From Octopus vulgaris (lineage: Eukaryota): a DNA stretch of 64,000 nucleotides. The stretch's first letter is position 1. Every line of letters begins with the position of its first letter. A model generated the notes under the pieces. It did no database searches, had not been told where the DNA came from, and worked only from the letters and a program-made list of their open reading frames with translations. The stretch lies in contig OX597827.1 of NCBI GenBank assembly GCA_951406725.2, forward strand, positions 48,732,001-48,796,000, in the 5' to 3' direction. Shown one piece after another: positions 210-50,969 of the stretch. Both the position numbers and the translations under genes were made by a program.

Positions 210-213
<4 letters not shown>

Positions 214-856
214 GATCAAAATAAAAACATGATGCGAAGGATTCAGCGGTACATATGTTTCGGGCCTTTATTAGACAGATTTATAACAATGCATAATGTA
301 TGTCTGTGGCCTTCTTCAGCCGCGCACAACAGCTTCCACAAGGACATGTGTTACATCAGAAATTCTTGGTTGGGGATGCAAATCCTCCCATTCGCGTACG
401 ACATAATGCGGCAGCAGCATAGAATTGAAGCGTCCATCTCTTTCTTCTCTCAATGTAGGATGAGGAAAAATGGATGTTGAAGTAATGTAAATAAATAAAT
501 ACATGTATATACGTGAAGATGGGCGAGAATTCAGGACGAGGGATAAAAAATGTATAAAAAGTGTAAGTATAGAAGAATATAAAAATGTAGAGCATAAAGA
601 TATAAAGAGATATAAGGAGATGTAAAGGGGGTATAAAGAATATAAAGAAATATAAAGAAATATAAATAAATGTAAAGGCATAAGGTTATAAAGTAAAACT
701 AGAAATAGAAATAAAAATAAAAGTAAAAAAACATGATAAAAATGTAACAAAATATAAAAAAATATAAAGATAAGGGATGTATAGAGGTTAAGGACCAAGC
801 ATGGTGGTCAGGAGATTGATAAAATTTAGTTGTAGAATTGTCAGTAAATCAACAGT
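210..856 (-). repeat. Inverted copy of PLE 3' terminal repeat (647 bp)
   Basis: Position x pairs with 4444-x, with only a few mismatches. Confidence 0.95.
246..323 (-). ncRNA. Type I hammerhead ribozyme (PLE pLTR, inverted copy)
   Basis: Reverse complement of the motif at 4121-4198. Confidence 0.8.
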
Positions 857-2299
857 CTATACAGAGACGACGCTCTCTTCATATACCCCACCAACAATAG
901 GAGTAAACTAGAAAGAATTAGGAAAAAGATCAGGCTTTTTTTCAAATCCTTCAATCTTAAACTAGAATTTATGACCAATACTAAAATAGTAAACTTCTTA
1001 GATGTTACGTTAGACCTGAATAAGCACCTTCACCACCCGTATAGGAAACCCGAAGAAACTACCAAATACATCCATACCTCTTCCAACCATCCACCCTGTA
1101 TAATTAGCACCACAGTCCAAGCCATCTCAGACAGACTGACAAAACTATCCTCTAATAGAGAAATTTTCAATAATCACGCACAACACTACAACCAGGCTCT
1201 CTATAGTGCCGGGTATAACCAGAGAATATCATATGTAGACTACCCGGGAGCGTCCGTCTGCCATAAAACTTCCAATTATAATCGAACTCAGCACTCAACT
1301 CACACTAGCGATAATTCTAATTTAAACTCCAAACAACGTATAGGAAATAGGCGAACTAATAGAATAGCACACAATAGTAACCCTCCCGACGAGAACAATA
1401 TAGATCCTATTAGGAGAAATAGAAGGGATAATAGATTACGCAAATACATATGGTTCAACTTACCTTACAACTTAGCAGTTAGGGGTAAGTTATGTAAGAG
1501 AATATTCTCTATCATTTCCAACAACTTCCCACCCACCCACAAGTATAGAAGTATCTTCTCCAACAAAACCATTAGGATTTCCTACTCTACCCTGCCCAAC
1601 ATGAGCTGCCTCATAGCTAAACATAACTATATTAATATTAGAACAGCTAGATCAAGAGCAAACCATAGCGACCAACAGAACCCCCCTCATCTAGACAGTA
1701 GACAATATAACCAGACTGGCAGCCATACTACCCAAACAGTTAGTAATAACTCCCGCCAACACAACAGAGGAAATACTACACCCATCAACAACCAGGAGGA
1801 TATCAACGCCCCCACTCGTATTGCAACACCTCCGCCTGGGATTAGTAGCACACGACCGAATAATGCAATGCAATGCAACTGCAGATGTGCATCAGAGTGC
1901 CCGCTGCAGGGCGCATGACGGGCGAAAAACGTAATATATTCATGTGAGGTGAGTACCCAGTTTAACACACTCACCTATATTGGTTGCTCAACCTCCTGGA
2001 AATCCAGATACTACAACCACCGGTCCTCGCTGAGACACAGACATAAGGCTAACAGCACCTCCCTTTCTAAAAGAATTTGGGAATTAAAAGACAAATGTAT
2101 AGGCTTCAAACTCAGATGGTCCATCATCGGATCAGCTGCACCTTATTTAAATAATAGAGCAGGATGCCAACTATGTTGTGTAGAACTCCTGAACATCTTG
2201 AAATTCAAAGACAAACACAATCTTATTAACAAAAGGTCAGAGTTCAAACCATCCTGTATACACAAACTTATTAATACTTTCAAATACTACAAAGCTTAG
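857..2299 (+). pseudogene. Penelope RT/GIY-YIG endonuclease ORF, 5'-truncated, one in-frame stop
   Basis: One frame reads LYRDDALF..RIRKKI..KIVNFLDVTLDL..PYRKP..YIHTSSNHPP..IWFNLPY..CNCR..CPLQGA*(TGA 1916-1918)RAKNVIY..TYIG..WKSRYYNH..LSKRIWELK..CQLC..E..LINKRSE..CIH. Joins track ORFs 971-1918 and 1949-2299. Confidence 0.92.
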
Positions 2300-3587
2300 G
2301 TTTTATACCAACTCCCCCATGCAATTTCCTCCCACCCGGTGCAACCTGTCGGCTCCAGCACATCCCGCTTTCCTATATGTGCGTGTATATGCGTATGCGT
2401 GTGTGTATGTATATGTATGCGCACATATGTGTACGTATATGTACATATATATATATATATATATATATGTGCGTGTGTGTGTGTGTGTGTGGGTGTGTGT
2501 ATGTGCATATATGTTTCCCTGCATTTTCCTCCTATATATACAAATTTTGTCTCCCATACATGACTTCTTTTCCCTAAATATTTCTTCTCCTACACCCATA
2601 TCCTTCCTATATAGTCTCTTTACTTCCCTATATCTATACCCTTTCACATTTCTAACTCGGATGTTGAACGCACACCGCCAAACTCCACTTCCCACCCTTC
2701 CAATTTTTCAGTTCCCCCCGCCCGCCCCTACGTGGACACTTTTAACACACACCTCTAACTTTCAACCACATTCATCTCATGTTGAATTATATTTTTATCT
2801 TATTTTATTTTATTTTATTTTTACTCTTATTCTACTTCCATTTATTCTCATTTTCATTTTCATCCCTTACCTTAACTCTTATAATTTTTATAATTTTTAT
2901 ATTTCATTTCTAACTATTACATTGTATTTCTTATTTTATACTGTATTTCTTACTTTTATTTCTAATTTTTACCCTTACCCTCATTCTTACCCCTAACTTA
3001 TCGCTTTACATCTCTATATATGTTTATTTACTTACCTATAGATCCACTTTTGACTATGCAAGCGTCCGTGTACGTATGTATACGCATACATACATAGACG
3101 CGCGCATATATGTACATGCATATTTTGATATCTTATAGCTATACCCATATGTCTCTGTGTGTGTGTGTAGGTGTATGTGTGCACGCACATACGTACACAC
3201 AGCCGTGTGTGCGTGCACGCATAGACGTGATTCCTTTAATATCTTATATCTAGACCTGGAAGCGTGAGCATATGCGTGTGTGTATGTAGTGATGAGCGCG
3301 CGTATGTACATGTGAGTGTGTACACGTATAGTGTCCGTGTATACATGCGGATATTCTGTTGTATGTATGTATATGTACGCACGTGCGTGTGGGTGTGTGT
3401 GTGTTTATATGAATGTTTACACGCGAGTGCGTGTGTATGCTTATAGGCTTGGAGGCGTATATGTACGCGTGTATATGGGTGTGTGTATCCATGTTGGATA
3501 TGTATGTACTAGAAGTCCAAATAATTCAAGGAACCAGATTAAACGCTCAACAGCTCTGATTTACAACGCATTAGGTCCCCAGACGAA

Positions 3588-4234
3588 ACTGTTGATTTAC
3601 TGACAATTCTACAACTAAATTTTATCAATCTCCTGACCACCATGCTTGGTCCTTAACCTCTATACATCCCTTATCTTTATATTTTTTTATATTTTGTTAC
3701 ATTTTTATCATGTTTTTTTACTTTTATTTTTATTTCTATTTCTATTTTTACTTTATAACCTTATGCCTTTACATTTATTTATATTTCTTTATATTTCTTT
3801 ATATTCTTTATACCCCCTTTACATCTCCTTATATCTCTTTATATATTTATGCTCTACATTTTTATATTTTTCTATACTTACACTTTTTATACATTTTTTA
3901 TCCCTCGTCCTGAATTCTCGCCCATCTTCACGTATATACATGTATTTATTTATTTACATTACTTCAACATCCATTTTTCCTCATCCTACATTGAGAGAAG
4001 AAAGAGATGGACGCTTCAATTCTATGCTGCTGCCGCATTATGTCGTACGCGAATGGGAGGATTTGCATCCCCAACCAAGAATTTCTGATGTAACACATGT
4101 CCTTGTGGAAGCTGTTGTGCGCGGCTGAAGAAGGCCACAGACATACATTATGCATTGTTATAAATCTGTCTAATAAAGGCCCGAAACATATGTACCGCTG
4201 AATCCTTCGCATCATGTTTTTATTTTGATCAATT
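3588..4234 (+). repeat. PLE 3' terminal repeat (pLTR) region
   Basis: Reverse complement of 210-856, contains the hammerhead. Confidence 0.95.
4121..4198 (+). ncRNA. Type I hammerhead ribozyme (PLE pLTR)
   Basis: GCGG-CTGAAGA-AGGCC..GGCCC-GAAA-CATATG-TA-CCGC. Stem I GCGG/CCGC, palindromic stem III, predicted cleavage after GUA at 4194. Confidence 0.82.
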
Positions 4235-4328
4235 TACTCCACCACCTACACCACCAAACGGTATACACAGGTGCTTATAATTATCAAGTACTCACCCCGA
4301 ATTTCTATATATATATATATATATATAT

Positions 4329-13010: not shown

Positions 13011-13092
13011 GATGAGGTGGCCGAGTGGTTAAGGCGACGGACAGCTAATCCGTTGGGATATACCCTCGTGAGTTCGTATCTCATCCTCGTCG
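13011..13092 (+). tRNA. tRNA-Ser(GCT), probably a pseudogene or variant
   Basis: 82-nt cloverleaf: acceptor GATGAGG/CCTCGTC, D-arm TGGCCGAGTGGTTAAGGC, stem ACGGA/TCCGT around GCT (13044-46), long variable arm, T-arm GTGAG-TTCGTAT-CTCAT. Invariant U33 is A and A58 is T. Confidence 0.85.
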
Positions 13093-13544: not shown

Positions 13545-13582
<38 letters not shown>

Positions 13583-13595
13583 AAAATATATATAT

Positions 13596-13655
<60 letters not shown>

Positions 13656-13775
13656 ACAATCAAGGAACGGCCATAATAGGCCATTCACCCACTAGAAATA
13701 ACAGCCAAAAGCTTTAACCGCAAAATAACGTCAATTCCGTAAACCAGGAGAAAATTGAAAAACATTTACCCTGTA

Positions 13776-13882
13776 ATTTCTTAGACGATGCACCGTTTCA
13801 TCTTCTGTTTAATGGAAAACTAACCTGATTAAATTAAATCAACCCAATCTACCATAGGCCCTTAGATTCATCAGTAAGAAAT
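13776..13882 (-). ncRNA. Type I hammerhead ribozyme, array copy 1
   Basis: ATTTCTTA-CTGATGA-ATCT..AGAT-GAAA-CGGTGCATCG-TC-TAAGAAAT on the minus strand. Confidence 0.9.
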
Positions 13883-14271
13883 AGCCAAACCGGAACAGAT
13901 ATTTTTCACGAGGCATTCTCATTGCTACCTCGTCAATATCTGACCTAAAATTTTCAAATCGTCGCACTCGCGCCAAATTTATCGGCAGCAAATAAATATA
14001 AGCCGCCGATTCCATTACGGAATTAACCAGAAAATTCATAATTAATCAATATAGGGTGGCAAAAAAAAAAAATTTTGTAGAATTCTTTTGCCACCAGCGG
14101 CCTAGTGGGAAAAAATTAAATAGTCATAAACCATTTTTAAGTTCAACATCAACAATCAAGGAACGGCCATAATAGGCCATTCACCCACTAGAAATAACAG
14201 CCAAAAGCTTTAACCGCAAAATAACGTCAATTCCGTAAACCAGGAGAAAATTGAAAAACATTTACCCTGTA

Positions 14272-14378
14272 ATTTCTTAGATGATGCACCGTTTCATCTT
14301 CTGTTTAATGGAAAACTAACCTGATTAAATTAAATCAAGCCAATCTACCATAGGCCCTTAGATTCATCAGTAAGAAAT
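14272..14378 (-). ncRNA. Type I hammerhead ribozyme, array copy 2 (GUC to AUC variant)
   Basis: Same motif, but the substitution at 14282 breaks a stem III C-G pair. Confidence 0.8.
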
Positions 14379-14765
14379 AGCCAAACCGGAACAGATATTT
14401 TTCACGAGGCATTCTCATTGCTACCTCGTCAATATCTGACATAAAATTTTGAAATCGTCGCACTCGCGCCAAATTTATCGGCAGCAAATAAATATAAGCC
14501 GCCGATTCCATTACGGAATTAACCAGAAAATTCATAATTAATCAATATAGGGTGGCAAAAAAAAAATTTTGTAGAATTCTTTTGCCACCAGCGGCCTAGT
14601 GGGAAAAAATTAAATAGTCATAAACCATTTTTAAGTTCAACATCAACAATCAAGGAACGGCCATAATAGGCCATTCACCCACTAGAAATAACAGCCAAAA
14701 GCTTTAACCGCAAAATAACGTCAATTCCGTAAACCAGGAGAAAATTGAAAAACATTTACCCTGTA

Positions 14766-14872
14766 ATTTCTTAGACGATGCACCGTTTCATCTTCTGTTT
14801 AATGGAAAACTAACCTGATTAAATTAAATCAAGCCAATCTACCATAGGCCCTTAGATTCATCAGTAAGAAAT
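14766..14872 (-). ncRNA. Type I hammerhead ribozyme, array copy 3
   Basis: Intact core and stems. Confidence 0.9.
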
Positions 14873-15258
14873 AGCCAAACCGGAACAGATATTTTTCACG
14901 AGGCATTCTCATTGCTACCTCGTCAATATCTGACCTAAAATTTTCAAATCGTCGCACTCGCGCCAAATTTATCGGCAGCAAATAAATATAAGCCGCCGAT
15001 TCCATTACGGAATTAACCAGAAAATTCATAATTAATCAATATAGGGTGGCAAAAAAAAATTTTGTAGAATTCTTTTGCCACCAGCGGCCTAGTGGGAAAA
15101 AATTAAATAGTCATAAACCATTTTTAAGTTCAACATCAACAATCAAGGAACGGCCATAATAGGCCATTCACCCACTAGAAATAACAGCCAAAAGCTTTAA
15201 CCGCAAAATAACGTCAATTCCGTAAACCAGGAGAAAATTGAAAAACATTTACCCTGTA

Positions 15259-15365
15259 ATTTCTTAGACGATGCACCGTTTCATCTTCTGTTTAATGGAA
15301 AACTAACCTGATTAAATTAAATCAAGCCAATCTACCATAGGCCCTTAGATTCATCAGTAAGAAAT
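15259..15365 (-). ncRNA. Type I hammerhead ribozyme, array copy 4
   Basis: Intact core and stems. Confidence 0.9.
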
Positions 15366-15749
15366 AGCCAAACCGGAACAGATATTTTTCACGAGGCATT
15401 CTCATTGCTACCTCGTCAATATCTGACCTAAAATTGTCAAATCGTCGCACTCGCGCCAAAGTTATCGGCAGCAAATAAATATAAGCCGCCGATTCCATTA
15501 CGGAATTAACCAGAAAATTCATAATTAATCAATATAGGGTGGCAAAAAAATTTTGTAGAATTCTTTTGCCACCAGCGGCCTAGTGGGAAAAAATTAAATA
15601 GTCATAAACCATTTTTAAGTTCAACATCAACAATCAAGGAACGGCCATAATAGGCCACTCACCCACTAGAAATAACAGCCAAAAGCTTTAACCGCAAAAT
15701 AACGTCAATTCCGTAAACCAGGAGAAAATTGAAAAACATTTACCCTGTA

Positions 15750-15856
15750 ATTTCTTAGACGATGCACCGTTTCATCTTCTGTTTAATGGAAAACTAACCT
15801 GATTAAATTAAATCAAGCCAATCTACCATAGGCCCTTAGATTCATCAGTAAGAAAT
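15750..15856 (-). ncRNA. Type I hammerhead ribozyme, array copy 5
   Basis: Intact core and stems. Confidence 0.9.
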
Positions 15857-16243
15857 AGCCAAACCGGAACAGATATTTTTCACGAGGGATTCTCATTGCT
15901 ACCTCGTCAATATCTGACCTAAAATTTTCAAATCGTCGCACTCGCGCCAAATTTATCGGCAGCAAATAAATATAAGCCGCCGATTCCATTACGGAATTAA
16001 CCAGAAATTCATAATTAATCAATATAGGGTGGCAAAAAAAAAAATTTTGTAGAATTCTTTTGCCACCAGCGGCCTAGTGGGAAAAAATTAAATAGTCATA
16101 AACCATTTTTAAGTTCAACATCAACAATCAAGGAACGGCCATAATAGGCCATTCACCCACTAGAAATAACAGCCAAAAGCTTTAACCGCAAAATAACGTC
16201 AATTCCGTAAACCAGGAGAAAATTGAAAAACATTTACCCTGTA

Positions 16244-16350
16244 ATTTCTTAGACGATGCACCGTTTCATCTTCTGTTTAATGGAAAACTAACCTGATTAA
16301 ATTAAATCAAGCCAATCTACCATAGGCCCTTAGATTCATCAGTAAGAAAT
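16244..16350 (-). ncRNA. Type I hammerhead ribozyme, array copy 6
   Basis: Intact core and stems. Confidence 0.9.
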
Positions 16351-16734
16351 AGCCAAACCGGAACAGATATTTTTCACCAGGCATTCTCATTGCTACCTCG
16401 TCAATATCTGACCTAAAATTTTCAAATCGTCGCACTCGCGCCAAATTTATCGGCAGCAAATAAATATAAGCCGCCGATTCCATTACGGAATTAACCAGAA
16501 AATTCATAATTAATCAATATAGGGTGGCAAAAAAATTTTGTAGAATTCTTTTGCCACCAGCGGCCTAGTGGGAAAAAATTAAATAGTCATAAACCATTTT
16601 TAAGTTCAACATCAACAATCAAGGAACGGCCATAATAGGCCATTCACCCACTAGAAATAACAGCCAAAAGCTTTAACCGCAAAATAACGTCAATTCCGTA
16701 AACCAGGAGAAAATTGAAAAACATTTACCCTGTA

Positions 16735-16841
16735 ATTTCTTAGACGATGCACCGTTTCATCTTCTGTTTAATGGAAAACTAACCTGATTAAATTAAATCA
16801 AGCCAATCTACCATAGGCCCTTAGATTCATCAGTAAGAAAT
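16735..16841 (-). ncRNA. Type I hammerhead ribozyme, array copy 7
   Basis: Intact core and stems. Confidence 0.9.
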
Positions 16842-17227
16842 AGCCAAACCGGAACAGATATTTTTCACGAGGCATTCTCATTGCTACCTCGTCAATATCT
16901 GACCTAAAATTTTCAAATCGTCGCACTCGCGCCAAATTTATCGGCAGCAAATAAATATAAGCCGCCGATTCCATTACGGAATTAACCAGAAAATTCATAA
17001 TTAATCAATATAGGGTGGCAAAAAAAAATTTTGTAGAATTCTTTTGCCACCAGCGGCCTAGTGGGAAAAAATTAAATAGTCATAAACCATTTTTAAGTTC
17101 AACATCAACAATCAAGGAACGGCCATAATAGGCCATTCACCCACTAGAAATAACAGCCAAAAGCTTTAACCGCAAAATAACGTCAATTCCGTAAACCAGG
17201 AGAAAATTGAAAAACATTTACCCTGTA

Positions 17228-17334
17228 ATTTCTTAGACGATGCACCGTTTCATCTTCTGTTTAATGGAAAACTAACCTGATTAAATTAAATCAACCCAAT
17301 CTACCATAGGCCCTTAGATTCATCAGTAAGAAAT
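17228..17334 (-). ncRNA. Type I hammerhead ribozyme, array copy 8
   Basis: Intact core and stems. Confidence 0.9.
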
Positions 17335-18000
17335 AGCCAAACCGGAACAGATATTTTTCACGAGGCATTCTCATTGCTACCTCGTCAATATCTGACATAA
17401 AATTTTCAAATCGTCGCACTCGCGCCAAATTTATCGGCAGCAAATAAATATAAGCCGACGATTCCATTAAGTAATTAACCAGAACATTCATAATTAATCA
17501 ATATAGGGTGCCAAAAAAAATTTTGTAGAATTCTTTTGCCACCAGCGGCCTAGTGGGAAAAAATTAAATAGTCATAAACCATTTTTAAGTTCAACATCAA
17601 CAATCAAGGAACGGCCATAATAGGCCATTCACCCACTAGAAATAACAGCCAAAAGCTTTAACCGCAAAATAACGTCAATTCCGTAAACCAGGAGAAAATT
17701 GAAAAACATTTACCCTGTAATTTCTTAGACGATGCACCGTTTCATCTTCTGTTTAATGGAAAACTAACCTGATTAAATTAAATCAAGCCAATCTACCATA
17801 GGCCCTACAAAATTTTTTTTTTGCCACCCTATATTGATTAATTATGAATTTTCTGGTTAATTCCGTAATGGAATCGGCGGCTTATATTTATTTGCTGCCG
17901 ATAAATTTGGCGCGAGTGCGACGATTTGAAAATTTTAGGTCAGATATTGACGAGGTAGCAATGAGAATGCCTGGTGAAAAATATCTGTTCCGGTTTGGCT

Positions 18001-18107
18001 ATTTCTTACTGATGAATCTAAGGGCCTATGGTAGATTGGCTTGATTTAATTTAATCAGGTTAGTTTTCCATTAAACAGAAGATGAAACGGTGCATCGTCT
18101 AAGAAAT
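18001..18107 (+). ncRNA. Type I hammerhead ribozyme, array copy 9
   Basis: Stem I 18001-08/18100-07, CTGATGA 18009-15, stem II ATCT/AGAT, GAAA 18084-87, predicted cleavage after GUC at 18099. Confidence 0.92.
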
Positions 18108-18492
18108 TACAGGGTAAATGTTTTTCAATTTTCTCCTGGTTTACGGAATTGACGTTATTTTGCGGTTAAAGCTTTTGGCTGTTATTTCTAGTGGGTGAAT
18201 GGCCTATTATGGCCGTTCCTTGATTGTTGATGTTGAACTTAAAAATGGTTTATGACTATTTAATTTTTTCCCACTAGGCCGCTGGTGGCAAAAGAATTCT
18301 ATAAAATTTTTTTTGCCACCCTATATTGATTAATTATGAATTTTCTGGTTAATTCCGTAATGGAATCGGCGGCTTATATTTATTTGCTGCCGATAAATTT
18401 GGCGCGAGTGCGACGATTTGAAAATTTTAGGTTAGATATTGACGAGGTAGCAATGAGAATGCCTCGTGAAAAATATCTGTTCCGGTTTGGCT

Positions 18493-18599
18493 ATTTCTTA
18501 CTGATGAATCTAAGGGCCTATGGTAGATTGGCTTGATTTAATTTAATCAGGTTAGTTTTCCATTAAACAGAAGATGAAACGGTGCATCGTCTAAGAAAT
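18493..18599 (+). ncRNA. Type I hammerhead ribozyme, array copy 10
   Basis: Intact, predicted cleavage after 18591. Confidence 0.92.
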
Positions 18600-18985
18600 T
18601 ACAGGGTAAATGTTTTTCAATTTTCTCCTGGTTTACGGAATTGACGTTATTTTGCGGTTAAAGCTTTTGGCTGTTATTTCTAGTGGGTGAATGGCCTATT
18701 ATGGCCGTTCCTTGATTGTTGATGTTGAACTTAAAAATGGTTTATGACTATTTAATTTTTTCCCACTAGGCCGCTGGTGGCAAAAGAATTCTACAAATTT
18801 TTTTTTTGCCACCCTATATTGATTAATTATGAATTTTCTGGTTAATTCCGTAATGGAATCGGCGGCTTATATTTATTTGCTGCCGATAAATTTGGCGCGA
18901 GTGCGACGATTTGAAAATTTTAGTTCAGATATTGACGAGGTAGCAATGAGAATGCCTCGTGAAAAATATCTGTTCCGGTTTGGCT

Positions 18986-19092
18986 ATTTCTTACTGATGA
19001 ATCTAAGGGCCTATGGTAGATTGGCTTGATTTAATTTAATCAGGTTAGTTTTCCATTAAACAGAAGATGAAACGGTGCATCGTCTAAGAAAT
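18986..19092 (+). ncRNA. Type I hammerhead ribozyme, array copy 11
   Basis: Intact, predicted cleavage after 19084. Confidence 0.92.
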
Positions 19093-19347
19093 TACAGGGT
19101 AAATGTTTTTCAATTTTCTCCTGGTTTACGGAATTGACGTTATTTTGCGGTTAAAGCTTTTGGCTGTTATTTCTAGTGGGTGAATGGCCTATTATGGCCG
19201 TTCCTTGATTGTTGATGTTGAACTTAAAAATGGTTTATGACTATTTAATTTTTTCCCACTAGGCCGCTGGTGGCAAAAGAATTCTACAAATTTTTTTTTT
19301 TTGCCACCCTATATTGATTAAATATATATATATATATATATACATAC

Positions 19348-19378
<31 letters not shown>

Positions 19379-19379
19379 C

Positions 19380-19424
<45 letters not shown>

Positions 19425-45975: not shown

Positions 45976-47112
45976 AGATACTCTATCTTCTAATTAGCCT
46001 TAAGATTAAATTAAATAACGTTTAATATTGATACCGTCAAATTAGCCTTAGGATTAAATTAAATAACGTTTAATATAGTTTAATATTGTTAATAATTATT
46101 GTTAATTAGCCTTAAGATTAAATTAAATAACGTTTAATATTGTTTTAATATTGTTAATAATTTTTCAGATACTCTATCTTCTAATTAGCCTTAAGATTAA
46201 ATTAAATAACGTTTAATATTGTTAATAATTATTGTTAATTAGCCTTAGGATTAAATTAAATAACGTTTAATATTGTTTAATATTGTTAATAATTACTGTT
46301 AATTAGCCTTAAGATTAAATTAAATAACGTTTAATATTGTCTAATATTGTTAATAATTATTGTTAATTAGCCTTAAGATTAAATTAAATAACGTTTAATA
46401 TTGTTTAATATTGTTAATAATTATTGTTAATTAGCCTTAAGATTAAATTAAATAACGTTTAATATTGTTTTAATATTGTTAATACTTCTTCAGATACTCT
46501 ATCTTCTAATTAGCCTTAAGATTAAATTAAATAACGTTTAATATTACCCACACTCTAATATAATATTAACATTGCTAATATATTTTCAGATACTCTATCT
46601 CCTGATTAGCCTTAAGATTAAATAACGTTTTTATCCACACTCTAATATAATATTAATATTGCTAATATATTTTCAGATACTCTATCTTCTAATTAGCCTT
46701 AAGATTAAATTAAATAACGTTTAATATTAATAACGTCTAATTAGCCTTAACATTAAATTAAATAACGGTTAATATTGCTTAATATTGTATATATAATTTT
46801 TCAGATACTCTGTCTTCTAATTAGCCTTAAGATTAAATTAAATAACGTTTAATATTACCCACACTCTAATATAATATTAATATTGCTAATATATTTTCAG
46901 ATACTCTATCTCCAAATTAGCCTTAAGATTAAATAACGTTTTTTTACCCACACTCTAATATAATATTAATATTGCTAATATATTTTCAGATACTCTATCT
47001 CCTAATTAGCCTTAAGATTAAATAACGTTTTTACCCAAATAACGTTTTTACACAAACTTTAATATTGTTAATATTTCTTTTTCAAGTACTCTATCTTCTA
47101 ATTAGCCTTAAT
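45976..47112. repeat. Modular AT-rich minisatellite upstream of LINE ORF1
   Basis: Recurrent AATTAGCCTTAAGATTAAATTAAATAACGTTT core interspersed with CAGATACTCTATCT and CCACACTCTAATATAATATT modules. Confidence 0.9.
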
Positions 47113-47172: not shown

Positions 47173-47889
47173 ATGTCCAGAGCATGGAGACGTGACGAGC
47201 TGGATTTATTCGTACGAGCATGGGAGTGCGCCGGCGGAGATAGCCCTAGCGAGGTGATTGCGGCTGCGCTGAAGAGCAGAGGCTACAAGAGGACAGCGGC
47301 TCAGATGGAGCGAAAGAGACAGGAATTCGTGCGCTCATATGCGCTTGTACGGTCGCACATTGGCGCACTTGATGCCATCTTTGAGAACGAGCGGGGCAAA
47401 GATGGCAAGAATGGAGACGATGAAAGAAGTCACCCCCACCTGGTGGACGCCCAGGAGGAGGTTTTGAATGAGAAACCTGCCCGGGAAGTGAACCCAGGTG
47501 CAAGTTCTCCAACCGGCAGCAAGGGCCATGGAGACGGAGAACCCGGTGAAGAGGTAGAGGGAGGAAGAAAAACTAAAAGAAGGACTGGAAGAGCTAAAGG
47601 AAAAGAAAAAGCTCAAGCAGGACCAAAGAGTGAAACAACCAGGAGTAGAAGTGGAACCGCAAAGGATGGAACCAAACAGCGCACACGGGTGTGTATGTCC
47701 TACCTGAGAGGTTCCTGCTGGACACGGAAAGGAAGGTGCAGGCTGCCGCTTTGCACATCGGGGACCCTGCCACAGAGACACGAGGCAGATGGACAAACCA
47801 TCAACACAAAGAAAAGGGATGGACTACGCACCACCTGCCCCAAAGCGGAGGTACGCAGATGTTGTGCGCGCCACAAACAGCCAACATGA
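47173..47889 (+). CDS. LINE ORF1: Myb/SANT-like (trihelix) domain plus CCCH zinc finger, probably frameshifted near 47722
   Basis: WRRDELDLFVRAW..IAAALKSRGYKRTAAQMERK..Y pattern. Removing one A at 47722 gives CMSYLRGSCWHGKEGAGCRFAH. Confidence 0.7.
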   Translation: MSRAWRRDELDLFVRAWECAGGDSPSEVIAAALKSRGYKRTAAQMERKRQEFVRSYALVRSHIGALDAIFENERGKDGKNGDDERSHPHLVDAQEEVLNEKPAREVNPGASSPTGSKGHGDGEPGEEVEGGRKTKRRTGRAKGKEKAQAGPKSETTRSRSGTAKDGTKQRTRVCMSYLRGSCWTRKGRCRLPLCTSGTLPQRHEADGQTINTKKRDGLRTTCPKAEVRRCCARHKQPT

Positions 47890-50800
47890 TGTTGTCGAAA
47901 GAGCAGCTGCTGAGCAACAATCTTTTTGTGCATGGCACAAAAGATTGTACAGCAGCTGACCTGGCTTCATCAAACCCAAGCCCGCAGGTGGGACTACCCA
48001 CTATATACCAGACCACCACAGCAAACAGACACAGGATGGACACCGCCGGCAACAACGTACACCTCACCTCGATACTCCTACTGAACATCAGAGGACTGCA
48101 AACACTCAGTAACAGGACAAAGATCCCGTTCCTGAGAGACTTTGTTGCATGCAATCAAGCCTTATGCATAGCACTTACAGAAACGCACCTGAAACCGGAC
48201 ATAGCAGATGCGGAGTTACACATACCACAGTATGCTGTACTACGGACCGACAGGAAAGAAAGGAGTCATGGAGGTGTTGCTATGTACATCCGTGAGGACC
48301 TCACACCCCAGGTCCTCTTGTCATACTCAAACTCGGTGTGTGACACACTAATTGTACATATTAGGCAACTTGATGTAGTTGTGTGTGCTACATATCGCCC
48401 TCCAGATGCCCCAAGCCATGTGGGCAAGTTCGAAGACTGCCTTATAAAAATAGAAGAAATTCTAACCACATTAGAACAACACATAGGTGTGCTTCTTATG
48501 GGAGACTTCAATCTGCCCAATGTCAGATGGCCCGAGGGCCTTTCTCTCCCAGGAATGACAAGATGGGAACGAGGACAGGCGAGGTCCCTCCTGAACCTCA
48601 TCAACACCCTGTACATGGAGCAGGTAATACTCCAACCAACCAGGGCAGGTAACACACTGGATCTCTGCTTCACAAATGACATGGATCTCATCCATAATGT
48701 GAAAGTGACACCGACACTACTCTCGGATCACAACATGATAGAGCTGACCATGTACGGGCCAAAAGAGAGCACGGACATGCAGCCTACAAGAAACCCTCAA
48801 AATCTTTCCAGCTTGAACTACCATAAGGCAAACTGGAAACAAATTGAGAAAGAGATCCTCAAACAAAACTGGCCTGAATGTCTCTCCTCGCCAGACATCG
48901 ACGTGAAACTTCAACAATTCATGTCTGTAATGCAAGCCATATGCTACAAATGTGTCCCAGAGAGAAAGGCCACTGTACACAAGAACAAAATCCCCAGAGA
49001 GAGGAAAATTTTAATGAGACGGCGTACGAAATTTTCAAATCGCCTAAACAAACAGATTGAAAGCAGTGAAAAGTCCCGCCTAAAAATAAAACTGTTGGAA
49101 ATCGAAAAATGTCTGCAACTCTCCCATGAAAAAGAAAGAGCAGACAAAGAAGCCTGGGCTATAGAAAACATAAAATCTAACCCCAGAGCTTTCTACAGGT
49201 ATGCCAAAGAAACAGCTACAGTGCACTGTAGAATAGGGCCACTCCTTGAAAAGGATGGCACACTTACAGGAAAACCAATGAGGGTAAGTGAAATACTGAA
49301 TGAGCAATTCAAGAGTGTTTTCACTCCACCCCTTGGGCATCTCCAAATCACCAATCCAACTGACTTTTTTACCACTGCAGATATAAAATCAGAGGCGGCG
49401 ACGATAGATTACATCGATATAAAGGAAGACGATGTAACCAAGGCTATAGATGAAATGAAAACAGACTCAGCTACTGGCCCCGATGGATTCCCGGCAATCC
49501 TCCTAAAAGCATGTAAGAGAGTCCTAGCAAGACCACTGCAGTTCCTCTTTCAGAGCTTCCTTGCAGCTGGCAAACTTCCAGGAAAACTGAAGGAAGGTAA
49601 AATATGCCCCATTCATAAAGGAGGTAGCAGAGCGGAAGCCAAGAACTATAGACCTATCTCTCTGACCTCACACATCAGCAAGGTCATGGAACGAATAGTC
49701 AGAAGGAAGCTGATTACCTTCCTTGAAGAGAATGACTTGCTGCCCGACACCCAACATGGTTTCCGACCAGGGAGAAGCTGTTTAACTCAGCTCCTACAAC
49801 ACTATGACTGGGTGCTGAAACGGCTGCTCAACCACTCAAATGTGGAAGTGATATATCTCGACTTTGCAAAGGCCTTTGATAAAGTCGATCATGGAATGAT
49901 ATGTCACAAACTGCGTGATCTCAACATAGTTGGAAAACTGGGAGAATGGCTTCATGACTTTCTGAAGGATAGAAGTCAGGTGGTAGTAGCCAATGGGGCC
50001 ACCTCCATTAACACACAAATAGTGAGCGGTGTTCCGCAGGGCACTGTTCTGGGACCACTACTGTTCATAATGGCCCTCTCAGACATGCCCTCAGCCACGC
50101 AGAGAGCCACGATCACAAGTTATGCAGATGATACAAAAGTCTCACAGGCAATACAGAACCCTGAGGACACTAAACACCTGCAATGTGAGCTGGACGAAAT
50201 ATACAAGTGGGCTGAAAAGAATAGCATGCAGTTCAATGCTGGAAAGTTTCAAGCTTTATACTATCAGCATGCAAAACTGAATGCAATACCCAATGAATAC
50301 ACTGGACCCGGAGGGATTGCAATCCCAGAGGCACAATCAGTGCGTGACCTGGGTATTCACATGAGTGATGACGCGACCTTTCATGTACATGTTGCTAAAC
50401 TGACAATGAAATGTAGACGGCTGGCTGGATGGATTCTTAGAACCTTTAGAACAAGAGAACAAGAAACCATGATGGTCCTCTGGAAGACACTTGTCCTAAG
50501 CCACTTTGACTATTGCTCTCAGCTATGGTCACCATCCAGTGTCAAGTTGATCACAGAACTTGAGGCGATCCAACGAAGCTACACAAAGAAGATAGCCTCT
50601 ATGCAGAATGTAAGCTACTGGGAAAGACTCAAGAGATTAAAATTATATTCCCTGGAGCGTAGGCGGGAAAGATATGCCATAATATACATCTGGAAGATCC
50701 TGGAGGGAAGTGTCCTGAACTTTGGCATCGAGAGTTACGCAAATGCCAGAACTGGGCGCCACTGCGTGGTGCCTAGGACTCCAAACCTGCCATCAAGATG

Positions 50801-50969
50801 TAGGACAAGATTCTGTGATAGCCTGGGCTTCCGAGGCCCACAGCTCTTCAATATCCTCCCGAAGAACCTGAGAGACCTGCATGGGGTGGATACAGATGTC
50901 TTTAAAATGAAGCTGGATCTCTTCCTGTCAGGTGTCCCAGATGAACCAACTTCACGGCAGGAGGGGTAG
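47691..50969 (+). CDS. LINE ORF2: APE endonuclease + reverse transcriptase (true start likely ATG near 47887 or 48036)
   Basis: NIRGL, LTETHL, GGV, YRPP, GDFN, TLDL, SDHN, then GPDG, NYRPISL, QHGFR, LDFAKAFDKVDH, GVPQGTVLGP, YADD, DLG, YCSQLWSP, LYSLERRR. Uninterrupted frame. Confidence 0.96.
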   Translation: MYVLPERFLLDTERKVQAAALHIGDPATETRGRWTNHQHKEKGWTTHHLPQSGGTQMLCAPQTANMMLSKEQLLSNNLFVHGTKDCTAADLASSNPSPQVGLPTIYQTTTANRHRMDTAGNNVHLTSILLLNIRGLQTLSNRTKIPFLRDFVACNQALCIALTETHLKPDIADAELHIPQYAVLRTDRKERSHGGVAMYIREDLTPQVLLSYSNSVCDTLIVHIRQLDVVVCATYRPPDAPSHVGKFEDCLIKIEEILTTLEQHIGVLLMGDFNLPNVRWPEGLSLPGMTRWERGQARSLLNLINTLYMEQVILQPTRAGNTLDLCFTNDMDLIHNVKVTPTLLSDHNMIELTMYGPKESTDMQPTRNPQNLSSLNYHKANWKQIEKEILKQNWPECLSSPDIDVKLQQFMSVMQAICYKCVPERKATVHKNKIPRERKILMRRRTKFSNRLNKQIESSEKSRLKIKLLEIEKCLQLSHEKERADKEAWAIENIKSNPRAFYRYAKETATVHCRIGPLLEKDGTLTGKPMRVSEILNEQFKSVFTPPLGHLQITNPTDFFTTADIKSEAATIDYIDIKEDDVTKAIDEMKTDSATGPDGFPAILLKACKRVLARPLQFLFQSFLAAGKLPGKLKEGKICPIHKGGSRAEAKNYRPISLTSHISKVMERIVRRKLITFLEENDLLPDTQHGFRPGRSCLTQLLQHYDWVLKRLLNHSNVEVIYLDFAKAFDKVDHGMICHKLRDLNIVGKLGEWLHDFLKDRSQVVVANGATSINTQIVSGVPQGTVLGPLLFIMALSDMPSATQRATITSYADDTKVSQAIQNPEDTKHLQCELDEIYKWAEKNSMQFNAGKFQALYYQHAKLNAIPNEYTGPGGIAIPEAQSVRDLGIHMSDDATFHVHVAKLTMKCRRLAGWILRTFRTREQETMMVLWKTLVLSHFDYCSQLWSPSSVKLITELEAIQRSYTKKIASMQNVSYWERLKRLKLYSLERRRERYAIIYIWKILEGSVLNFGIESYANARTGRHCVVPRTPNLPSRCRTRFCDSLGFRGPQLFNILPKNLRDLHGVDTDVFKMKLDLFLSGVPDEPTSRQEG

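Follow-up and report, generated by a model that had tools for sequence, protein, structure and literature searches.

The 492-nt repeat unit described here belongs to a dispersed, non-coding family in the genome of Octopus vulgaris that is probably a non-LTR retrozyme copied by a Penelope-like enzyme. The unit lies in a 64,000-nucleotide stretch of contig OX597827.1, the whole of which is referred to below as the window, and in which a preliminary description, made from the letters of the sequence, had singled out the interval 18100–18591 as a branched, viroid-like fold selected at the RNA level. This interval is bounded exactly by two consecutive predicted hammerhead cleavage sites. RNA-level selection on the stems is well supported by covariation among homologues, a depletion of pair-breaking changes, an invariant hammerhead core and the anatomy of the insertions, but the wobble count in a single monomer, which had been offered as its proof, is explained by base composition.

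The window contains two outward-facing arms of a 492–493 bp repeat, flanked on each side by a (TA)n tract, and the arms share a 2 nt overlap at the point of inversion (Table 1). The array has four properties of retrozymes. First, the repeats are a few hundred bp long, are arranged head to tail, and each includes a type I hammerhead. Second, they are non-coding: no conserved open reading frame is present in the monomer when 20 haplotypes are compared (a 66-codon frame at window positions 18336–18536 begins at end site B in every unit, and it is intact in only 7 of the 20 haplotypes and missing from a related 474-nt family). Third, the copies are dispersed and mobile and lack LTR organisation. 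Fourth, the predicted structure of the monomer is stable (z −5.8, with covariation), yet only 56% of its bases are paired, in short strong stems set amid large A/U-rich loops. The monomer consists of 107 G, 187 U, 129 A and 69 C, and a scan for bacterial promoters, irrelevant here, gave chance-level results. No sequencing run registered as RNA was listed as containing the repeat; contigs covering the monomer occur in four runs that may be RNA and are given no weight here, and contigs cannot reveal circles. Elsewhere in the window, a tRNA-like sequence and, after it, a probable SINE body lie just beyond the left (TA)n flank (13011–13092), and an intact-looking 1,106-codon open reading frame with AP endonuclease and reverse transcriptase (RT) domains of the LINE type occupies 47649–50969, with a 248-codon frame and AT-rich tandem repeats (46040–47111) upstream of it.

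Table 1. Positions in the window of the repeat array, the monomer with its predicted helices and ribozyme, and the neighbouring coding element.
Feature	Position	Strand	Remarks
Left (TA)n target microsatellite	13545..13653	.	Left flank
Left arm	13652..17806	-	8.4 units; RNA 3′ end leftward; outer end at monomer position 132 (site A)
Right arm	17805..19325	+	3.1 units; outer end at monomer position ~235-238 (site B)
Right (TA)n target microsatellite	19322..19422	.	Right flank
Monomer	18100..18591	+	492 nt between consecutive predicted cleavage sites; 36% GC; G>C, U>A
Long-range helix	18141-53/18348-60 (18141..18360)	+	Closes domain containing both end sites
Helix	18188-95/18270-77 (18188..18277)	+	Both-side change at two pairs
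Hairpin R3	18198..18217	+	~14 nt 5′ of end site A
Unpaired stretch (predicted)	18218..18231	+	Ends at site A, the inferred reverse-transcription start 1
Hairpin R4 with U-tract	18284..18320	+	12-17 nt 5′ of end site B
Unpaired stretch (predicted)	18321..18337	+	Ends at site B, the inferred reverse-transcription start 2
Hairpin R5	18365..18394	+	Both-side change at two pairs; one recurrent A-C state
Hairpin R6	18434..18478	+	Outer stem conserved
Predicted 4-bp pseudoknot	18489-92 with 18515-18 (18489..18518)	+	Stem I side to stem II internal loop
Type I hammerhead	18493..18599	+	Predicted cleavage after GUC at 18591
Hammerhead stem I	18493-500/18592-99	+	8 bp
Hammerhead CUGAUGA	18501-07	+	
Hammerhead stem II base	18508-11/18572-75	+	Stem II 68 nt
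Hammerhead GAAA	18576-79	+	
Hammerhead stem III	18579-90	+	4 bp plus tetraloop
RT end and endonuclease region of coding element	848-2299		Stop at 1916-18
Long-stem-II type I hammerhead in terminal repeat of coding element	4125-4193		
Inverted copy of coding element	~210-870		

The hammerhead consensus comprises the motifs CUGANGA, GAAA and NUH together with stems I–III. Every unit carries CUGAUGA, GAAA and GUC with the three stems, and stem I is open, as expected of type I; the available text of PMC3088659 is consistent with this consensus. Rfam 15 models, with gathering and E-value thresholds applied, returned no hammerhead match and chance matches only, and Rfam thus overlooks hammerheads of this form. 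Inherited changes in the core across 99 loci are confined to N7 and H17, and among 20 haplotypes N7 shows all four bases; the exceptions among these haplotypes are U4C in one from the 474-nt family and a change at G8 in one. The base of stem II covaries fully between families. The first pair of a hammerhead stem II is usually G-C; here it is A-U, and it is mismatched in 5 of the 20 haplotypes.

The predicted pseudoknot varies in sequence while its pairing is kept. Its pairs occur in seven combinations among intact haplotypes (rows marked 'PK?' being omitted from the scoring), with one position taking C-G, U-A and U-G, and in subfamily B (46 counts) full pairing is found in a register one base on. 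Between families its distance from the core changes on either side, from 8 + 7 nt to 5–7 + 5 nt. Comparable pseudoknots accelerate cleavage in other hammerheads, according to the portions of PMC3088659 at hand; those differ from the present case, in which a long stem II makes the contact through its internal loop with the strand lying 5′ of stem I, and in which the ribozyme is of type I, belongs to an animal repeat and goes undetected by the Rfam 15 models. The active ribozyme fold lies 5.1 kcal/mol above the circular minimum free energy (MFE) structure and 1.7 kcal/mol above the linear one, with the pseudoknot uncounted. From the conservation of their core, these sequences are predicted to be self-cleaving; in Xenopus, only one of nine predicted retrozymes cleaved, as reported in the available text of 10.64898/2026.07.22.740005.

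Comparison of 40 insertions reveals a common anatomy. At 32 loci one arm ends at monomer positions 128–134 (site A) and the other at 231–238 (site B); the remaining eight include four with a single arm, three with one off-site end and one with two insertions. Other families also end at sites A and B, with the exception of L198, which has two B ends. Each site lies in sequence predicted to be unpaired, some 14 nt downstream (3′) of a conserved hairpin, and the two unpaired stretches resemble each other. The junctions between arms vary in position, with 2–14 nt of overlap in 21 of 34. The insertions have the hallmarks of Penelope-like elements, namely an inverted 5′-truncated copy with a tail at one end and an AT-rich or (TA)n target. 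In L049 (2008–4926), two insertions of different subfamilies adjoin within one (TA)n tract.

These features are those described for Penelope-like elements with an endonuclease, which in the accessible part of PMC8557442 show an inverted 5′-truncated copy, a one-sided tail and a (TA)n bias. In such insertions both target strands are cut and extended, and the length of the tail is set by how far apart the two internal RT start sites lie (both from the portions of PMC11167929 at hand). The octopus family shares with them the inverted, outward copy, the two fixed ends, the one-end tail, the AT-rich target and start sites preceded, on the 5′ side, by a type I hammerhead; unlike them, it has no open reading frame and carries many full units per arm. 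Its tail is longer, at ~104 nt compared with 30–40 nt in Penelope-like elements as far as the published text available goes, and ~72 nt in the coding elements of the same genome. The family thus appears to work like a non-autonomous Penelope-like element.

The arms of a given insertion agree in sequence. An informative-site difference between arms is present at 1 of 33 loci, compared with 25.5 on permutation (L049 with its two insertions, the rearranged loci L061, L064 and L067, and homopolymer columns were excluded), and 21 haplotypes were distinguished among 39 loci, each of them uniform throughout the units and arms of a locus. This pattern suggests that the two arms of one insertion were copied from one RNA, which was probably circular. 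Alternatively, the same element and enzyme could have used a linear multimer, or linear monomers joined by template jumping, in which case a circle would be unneeded and cleavage maybe dispensable. We consider this somewhat unlikely, but several observations fit it: homogeneous source arrays would yield homogeneous daughters; ribozyme mutants of an anole element left in vitro insertion unaffected, according to the available text of PMC11167929; and L046 contains an identical 15-nt deletion just past the cleavage site once per arm (L046:3421-3897 and L046:5198-5314), in each case between 3-nt direct repeats. Periodic variants also fit, with one change present in alternate units along a run of six in L068, variants of period 2 in part of the L047 array and of period 4 in L042, although these may reflect either oligomeric templates or later DNA duplications. 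Against a linear template, the 21 fixed haplotypes among 39 loci would require frequent single-unit bottlenecks, the core is invariant except at N7 and H17, and unit-to-unit junctions are almost all exact. One RNA that was probably circular is the reading we prefer.

Coding Penelope-like elements are present in the same genome, one of them in the window (210–4305), where it is 5′-truncated and its ends lie ~75 nt apart in (TA)n (Table 1). Its family is young, and intact 842-codon copies are found elsewhere. Pfam gave the 842-aa product no name, and we designate it Penelope-like on account of its architecture, of characteristic motifs and of homologues that carry PF26215. Named homologues include some from Argonauta. 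At least five further putative Penelope-like coding families were seen (L246–L261; 727, 718, 778, 904 and 976/806 codons), and a type I hammerhead is present in the majority of them. Hammerheads with a stem II of ~60 nt occur in four of the Penelope-like families altogether, resembling that of the monomer, and are of the form that Rfam missed in the window. Young and intact coding elements that combine a type I hammerhead, two ends and flanking (TA)n are present in this genome. No sequence shared with the monomer was found by BLAST in 24 loci of about six of these families, a difference between the monomer and the coding elements compared; the partner survey scored 58 of 57,282 candidates, and a partner search by a short-stem-II pattern gave 8 matches compared with 5 in controls.

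The family comprises ~3,000 units in short arrays scattered over many chromosomes. A DNA search of the 2.8-Gb genome gave 292 matches from 40 of 1,188 candidates, and searches with the ribozyme 3′ motif gave 2,863 and 296 matches, with none in controls. A second subfamily is 91% identical, the 474-nt family (72–80% identity) falls within the set of 296, and relatives are also present in sequencing runs of three other organisms. Stems and ribozyme core are conserved among families that are 72–99% identical.

All of the helices named in the preliminary description were found where it had placed them. The seven helical segments contain 60 Watson-Crick and five G-U pairs with no mismatches, and their mean pair probabilities are 0.82–0.99. 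For the alignment, 20 of 25 cluster representatives were used, five near-duplicate or visibly damaged ones being excluded (three from L047 and two from L179). Over 83 named pairs, 97.1% of cells in the 20 haplotypes are paired. Both sides have changed in 12 of the 83 pairs, compared with 7.2 in shuffles and 0–3 in slid controls, and RNAalifold, unaided, places both-side changes in 13 of 109 pairs; these changes represent few independent events, since they fall mostly on one branch, that between the 492-nt and 474-nt families. The 474-nt family retains the core of the long-range helix, apart from a single U.U mismatch, hairpin R3 has one both-side change and one U-G/U-A flip, and hairpin R4 shows compensation from G-C to A-U in the 474-nt family. 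The inner stem of R6 is the least conserved named helix, with 89% of cells paired. Beside the U-tract of R4, a C-to-G change (window 18313–18317, equivalent sites) recurs sporadically in many unrelated loci, and the length of the tract differs from unit to unit; both may be due to polymerase slippage or sequencing error.

Selection was assessed by treating variants fixed throughout a locus as inherited and those in single units as sporadic. Variants fixed across the units of a locus arrived with the template, and single-unit variants arose during or after insertion, so that the latter provide a near-neutral control. Over 124 loci, the ratio of pair-breaking to unpaired-site changes is 23:162 among inherited variants and 70:172 among sporadic ones (odds ratio 0.35, p 5e-5), and a smaller first version of this test pointed in the same direction. 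Three counts bear on a preference for G-U pairs. First, recurrent states in the 20 haplotypes include 17 G-U and 4 A-C (p 0.007 against 1:1, p 0.34 against composition). Second, inherited changes in A-U pairs give G-U in 13 cases and A-C in 3 (p 0.02). Third, inherited changes at wobble sites comprise 12 transitions to Watson-Crick pairs and no transversions (p 0.0014), a test tilted towards the sense strand, the one used to define the helices. G-C pairs show no such preference (5 G-U-making and 9 A-C-making changes), and pooled counts of G-U and A-C do not differ significantly between inherited and sporadic variants (18:12 and 23:22, p 0.49). There is a genuine wobble effect, though a modest one.

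Coleoid cephalopods have high levels of A-to-I editing. If the stems are selected, the G-U excess could nonetheless derive from strand-biased mutation in the RNA phase, in which edited sites are read as G by the RT. The restriction of the preference to A-to-G changes in A-U pairs (13:3), and its absence from G-C pairs (5:9), is what such editing would produce. On the other hand, there is no excess of A-to-G among inherited variants in young subfamilies (8, compared with 10 T-to-C), A-to-G clusters were not seen, and the G-C class is blurred by CpG decay and polarity errors. We regard editing as a fairly unlikely source of the excess.

The predicted fold is more stable than expected by chance. 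The circular MFE is −142.4 kcal/mol, compared with −108.6 ± 5.8 in 60 dinucleotide shuffles (z −5.8). The preliminary description had also taken the G-U wobbles to be specific to the ribozyme-sense strand, and such strand specificity holds in part: the reverse strand folds less stably in absolute terms (−93.7 kcal/mol), but it too is well below its own shuffles (z −3.9), and in a paired shuffle test the two strands have similar values (z −5.6 for reverse and −5.2 for sense). The gap of −48.7 kcal/mol between sense and antisense compares with −38.2 ± 6.6 in shuffles (z −1.6) and has z values of 0.0, −0.4 and −2.1 in three other haplotypes; the raw MFE gap is mostly a matter of composition and was rejected as evidence. 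Composition by itself favours G-U over A-C in the sense strand by 2.25 to 1. The statement that nearly all non-Watson-Crick positions are G-U is correct for the named helices, which were chosen with G-U allowed, and the finding of G-U at five of five such positions has p 0.16 given the composition of the strand. It does not extend to a strand-symmetric scan for single defects within Watson-Crick helices, which gave 14 G-U, 3 A-C and 18 other mismatches (14 to 3 has p 0.013 against 1:1 and p 0.30 against composition). Moreover, the MFE structure has 18 G-U among 138 pairs, fewer than in shuffles (32). A single monomer by itself does not demonstrate RNA-level selection, and where a sequence is rich in G and U, a tally of its G-U wobbles tests strand-specific RNA structure only weakly.

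The same results bear on whether this is an ordinary DNA satellite or foldback repeat, in which inverted repeats would matter, if at all, as single-stranded DNA. Both strands beat their shuffles, the minus strand also when folded with DNA parameters (z −4.3), and 60 of the 65 named pairs are strand-symmetric. However, a strand-specific ribozyme core is conserved at 72% overall identity, wobble flips are present, and the arrays are short, dispersed on many chromosomes and have fixed ends in (TA)n. The DNA satellite reading, largely refuted by covariation, the arm test, the inherited-variant test and core conservation, retains almost no likelihood; in this respect, covariation, the strand-specific core and the insertion anatomy bear out the preliminary description.

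Avsunviroidae and viroid-like satellite RNAs are of similar size and have a branched fold and a hammerhead. Avsunviroidae carry hammerheads in both polarities. In the window units the CUGAUGA core is present on one polarity only. Size, branched fold and hammerhead would suit integrated copies of a viroid-like RNA replicating from RNA to RNA, a mode raised for mussel circles in the accessible text of PMC7229834. Besides the single ribozyme polarity, however, pairing is low, and the insertion signature and thousands of genomic units, which argue for a DNA phase, account for the family without such replication, to which we assign very little likelihood. Unlike Avsunviroidae, the octopus family is genome-encoded, spreads via DNA insertions and is less paired. 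The term viroid-like therefore fits insofar as the RNA is likely circular and ribozyme-bearing, but it overstates the fold, and there is no sign of RNA-to-RNA replication.

At the level of sequence, the family matches the definition of metazoan non-LTR retrozymes; it is a new member of this known class and not a viroid. Like those of coral, mussel and axolotl in the available text of PMC7229834, it is built of non-coding units in tandem, every one of which has a type I hammerhead; its GC content is below 50%, LTR features are absent, and it coexists with Penelope-like elements. The unit is longer than the 170–400 nt given there and within the 51–972 bp of a vertebrate survey (available text of 10.64898/2026.07.22.740005). 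Relative to the retrozymes described in these texts, it differs in its 68-nt stem II with pseudoknot, in its 56% pairing, in being known from DNA and not from RNA circles, and in its pair of outward arms, both with a fixed end, which these texts do not report for retrozymes. The retrozyme papers, in the portions at hand, hold that an RT copies circular RNA into tandem DNA with Penelope-like elements as likely helper, and include no insertion-level test. Searches of the freely accessible literature listed no paper on a cephalopod retrozyme or a two-armed retrozyme insertion.

We propose that transcripts of the array would be cut by the pseudoknot-stabilised hammerhead into ~492-nt monomers, which would probably be ligated into circles. 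A Penelope-like RT/endonuclease would then cut a (TA)n target, and both target ends would be primed on one RNA at the unpaired sites that follow hairpins R3 and R4 at a distance of ~14 nt on the 3′ side. Both polymerases would circle the template several times, and the two cDNAs would join via short overlaps; selection on the RNA as a template would keep the stems and tolerate G-U. More tentatively, the fold may be a scaffold that offers a dimeric Penelope-like RT two equivalent priming sites on one circle, for twin rolling-circle priming at (TA)n, a possibility that we rate as somewhat short of even. If this is correct, twin-primed, rolling-circle reverse transcription would be recorded in each insertion, and the family would supply natural mutagenesis data on both the Penelope transposition mechanism and the pseudoknotted, long-stem-II hammerhead. 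The fixed ends, strict pairing of A with B and shared haplotype of the arms make the model of a circular RNA with a Penelope helper testable, and with thousands of copies, selection on the RNA fold can be gauged relative to a neutral control taken from those same loci.
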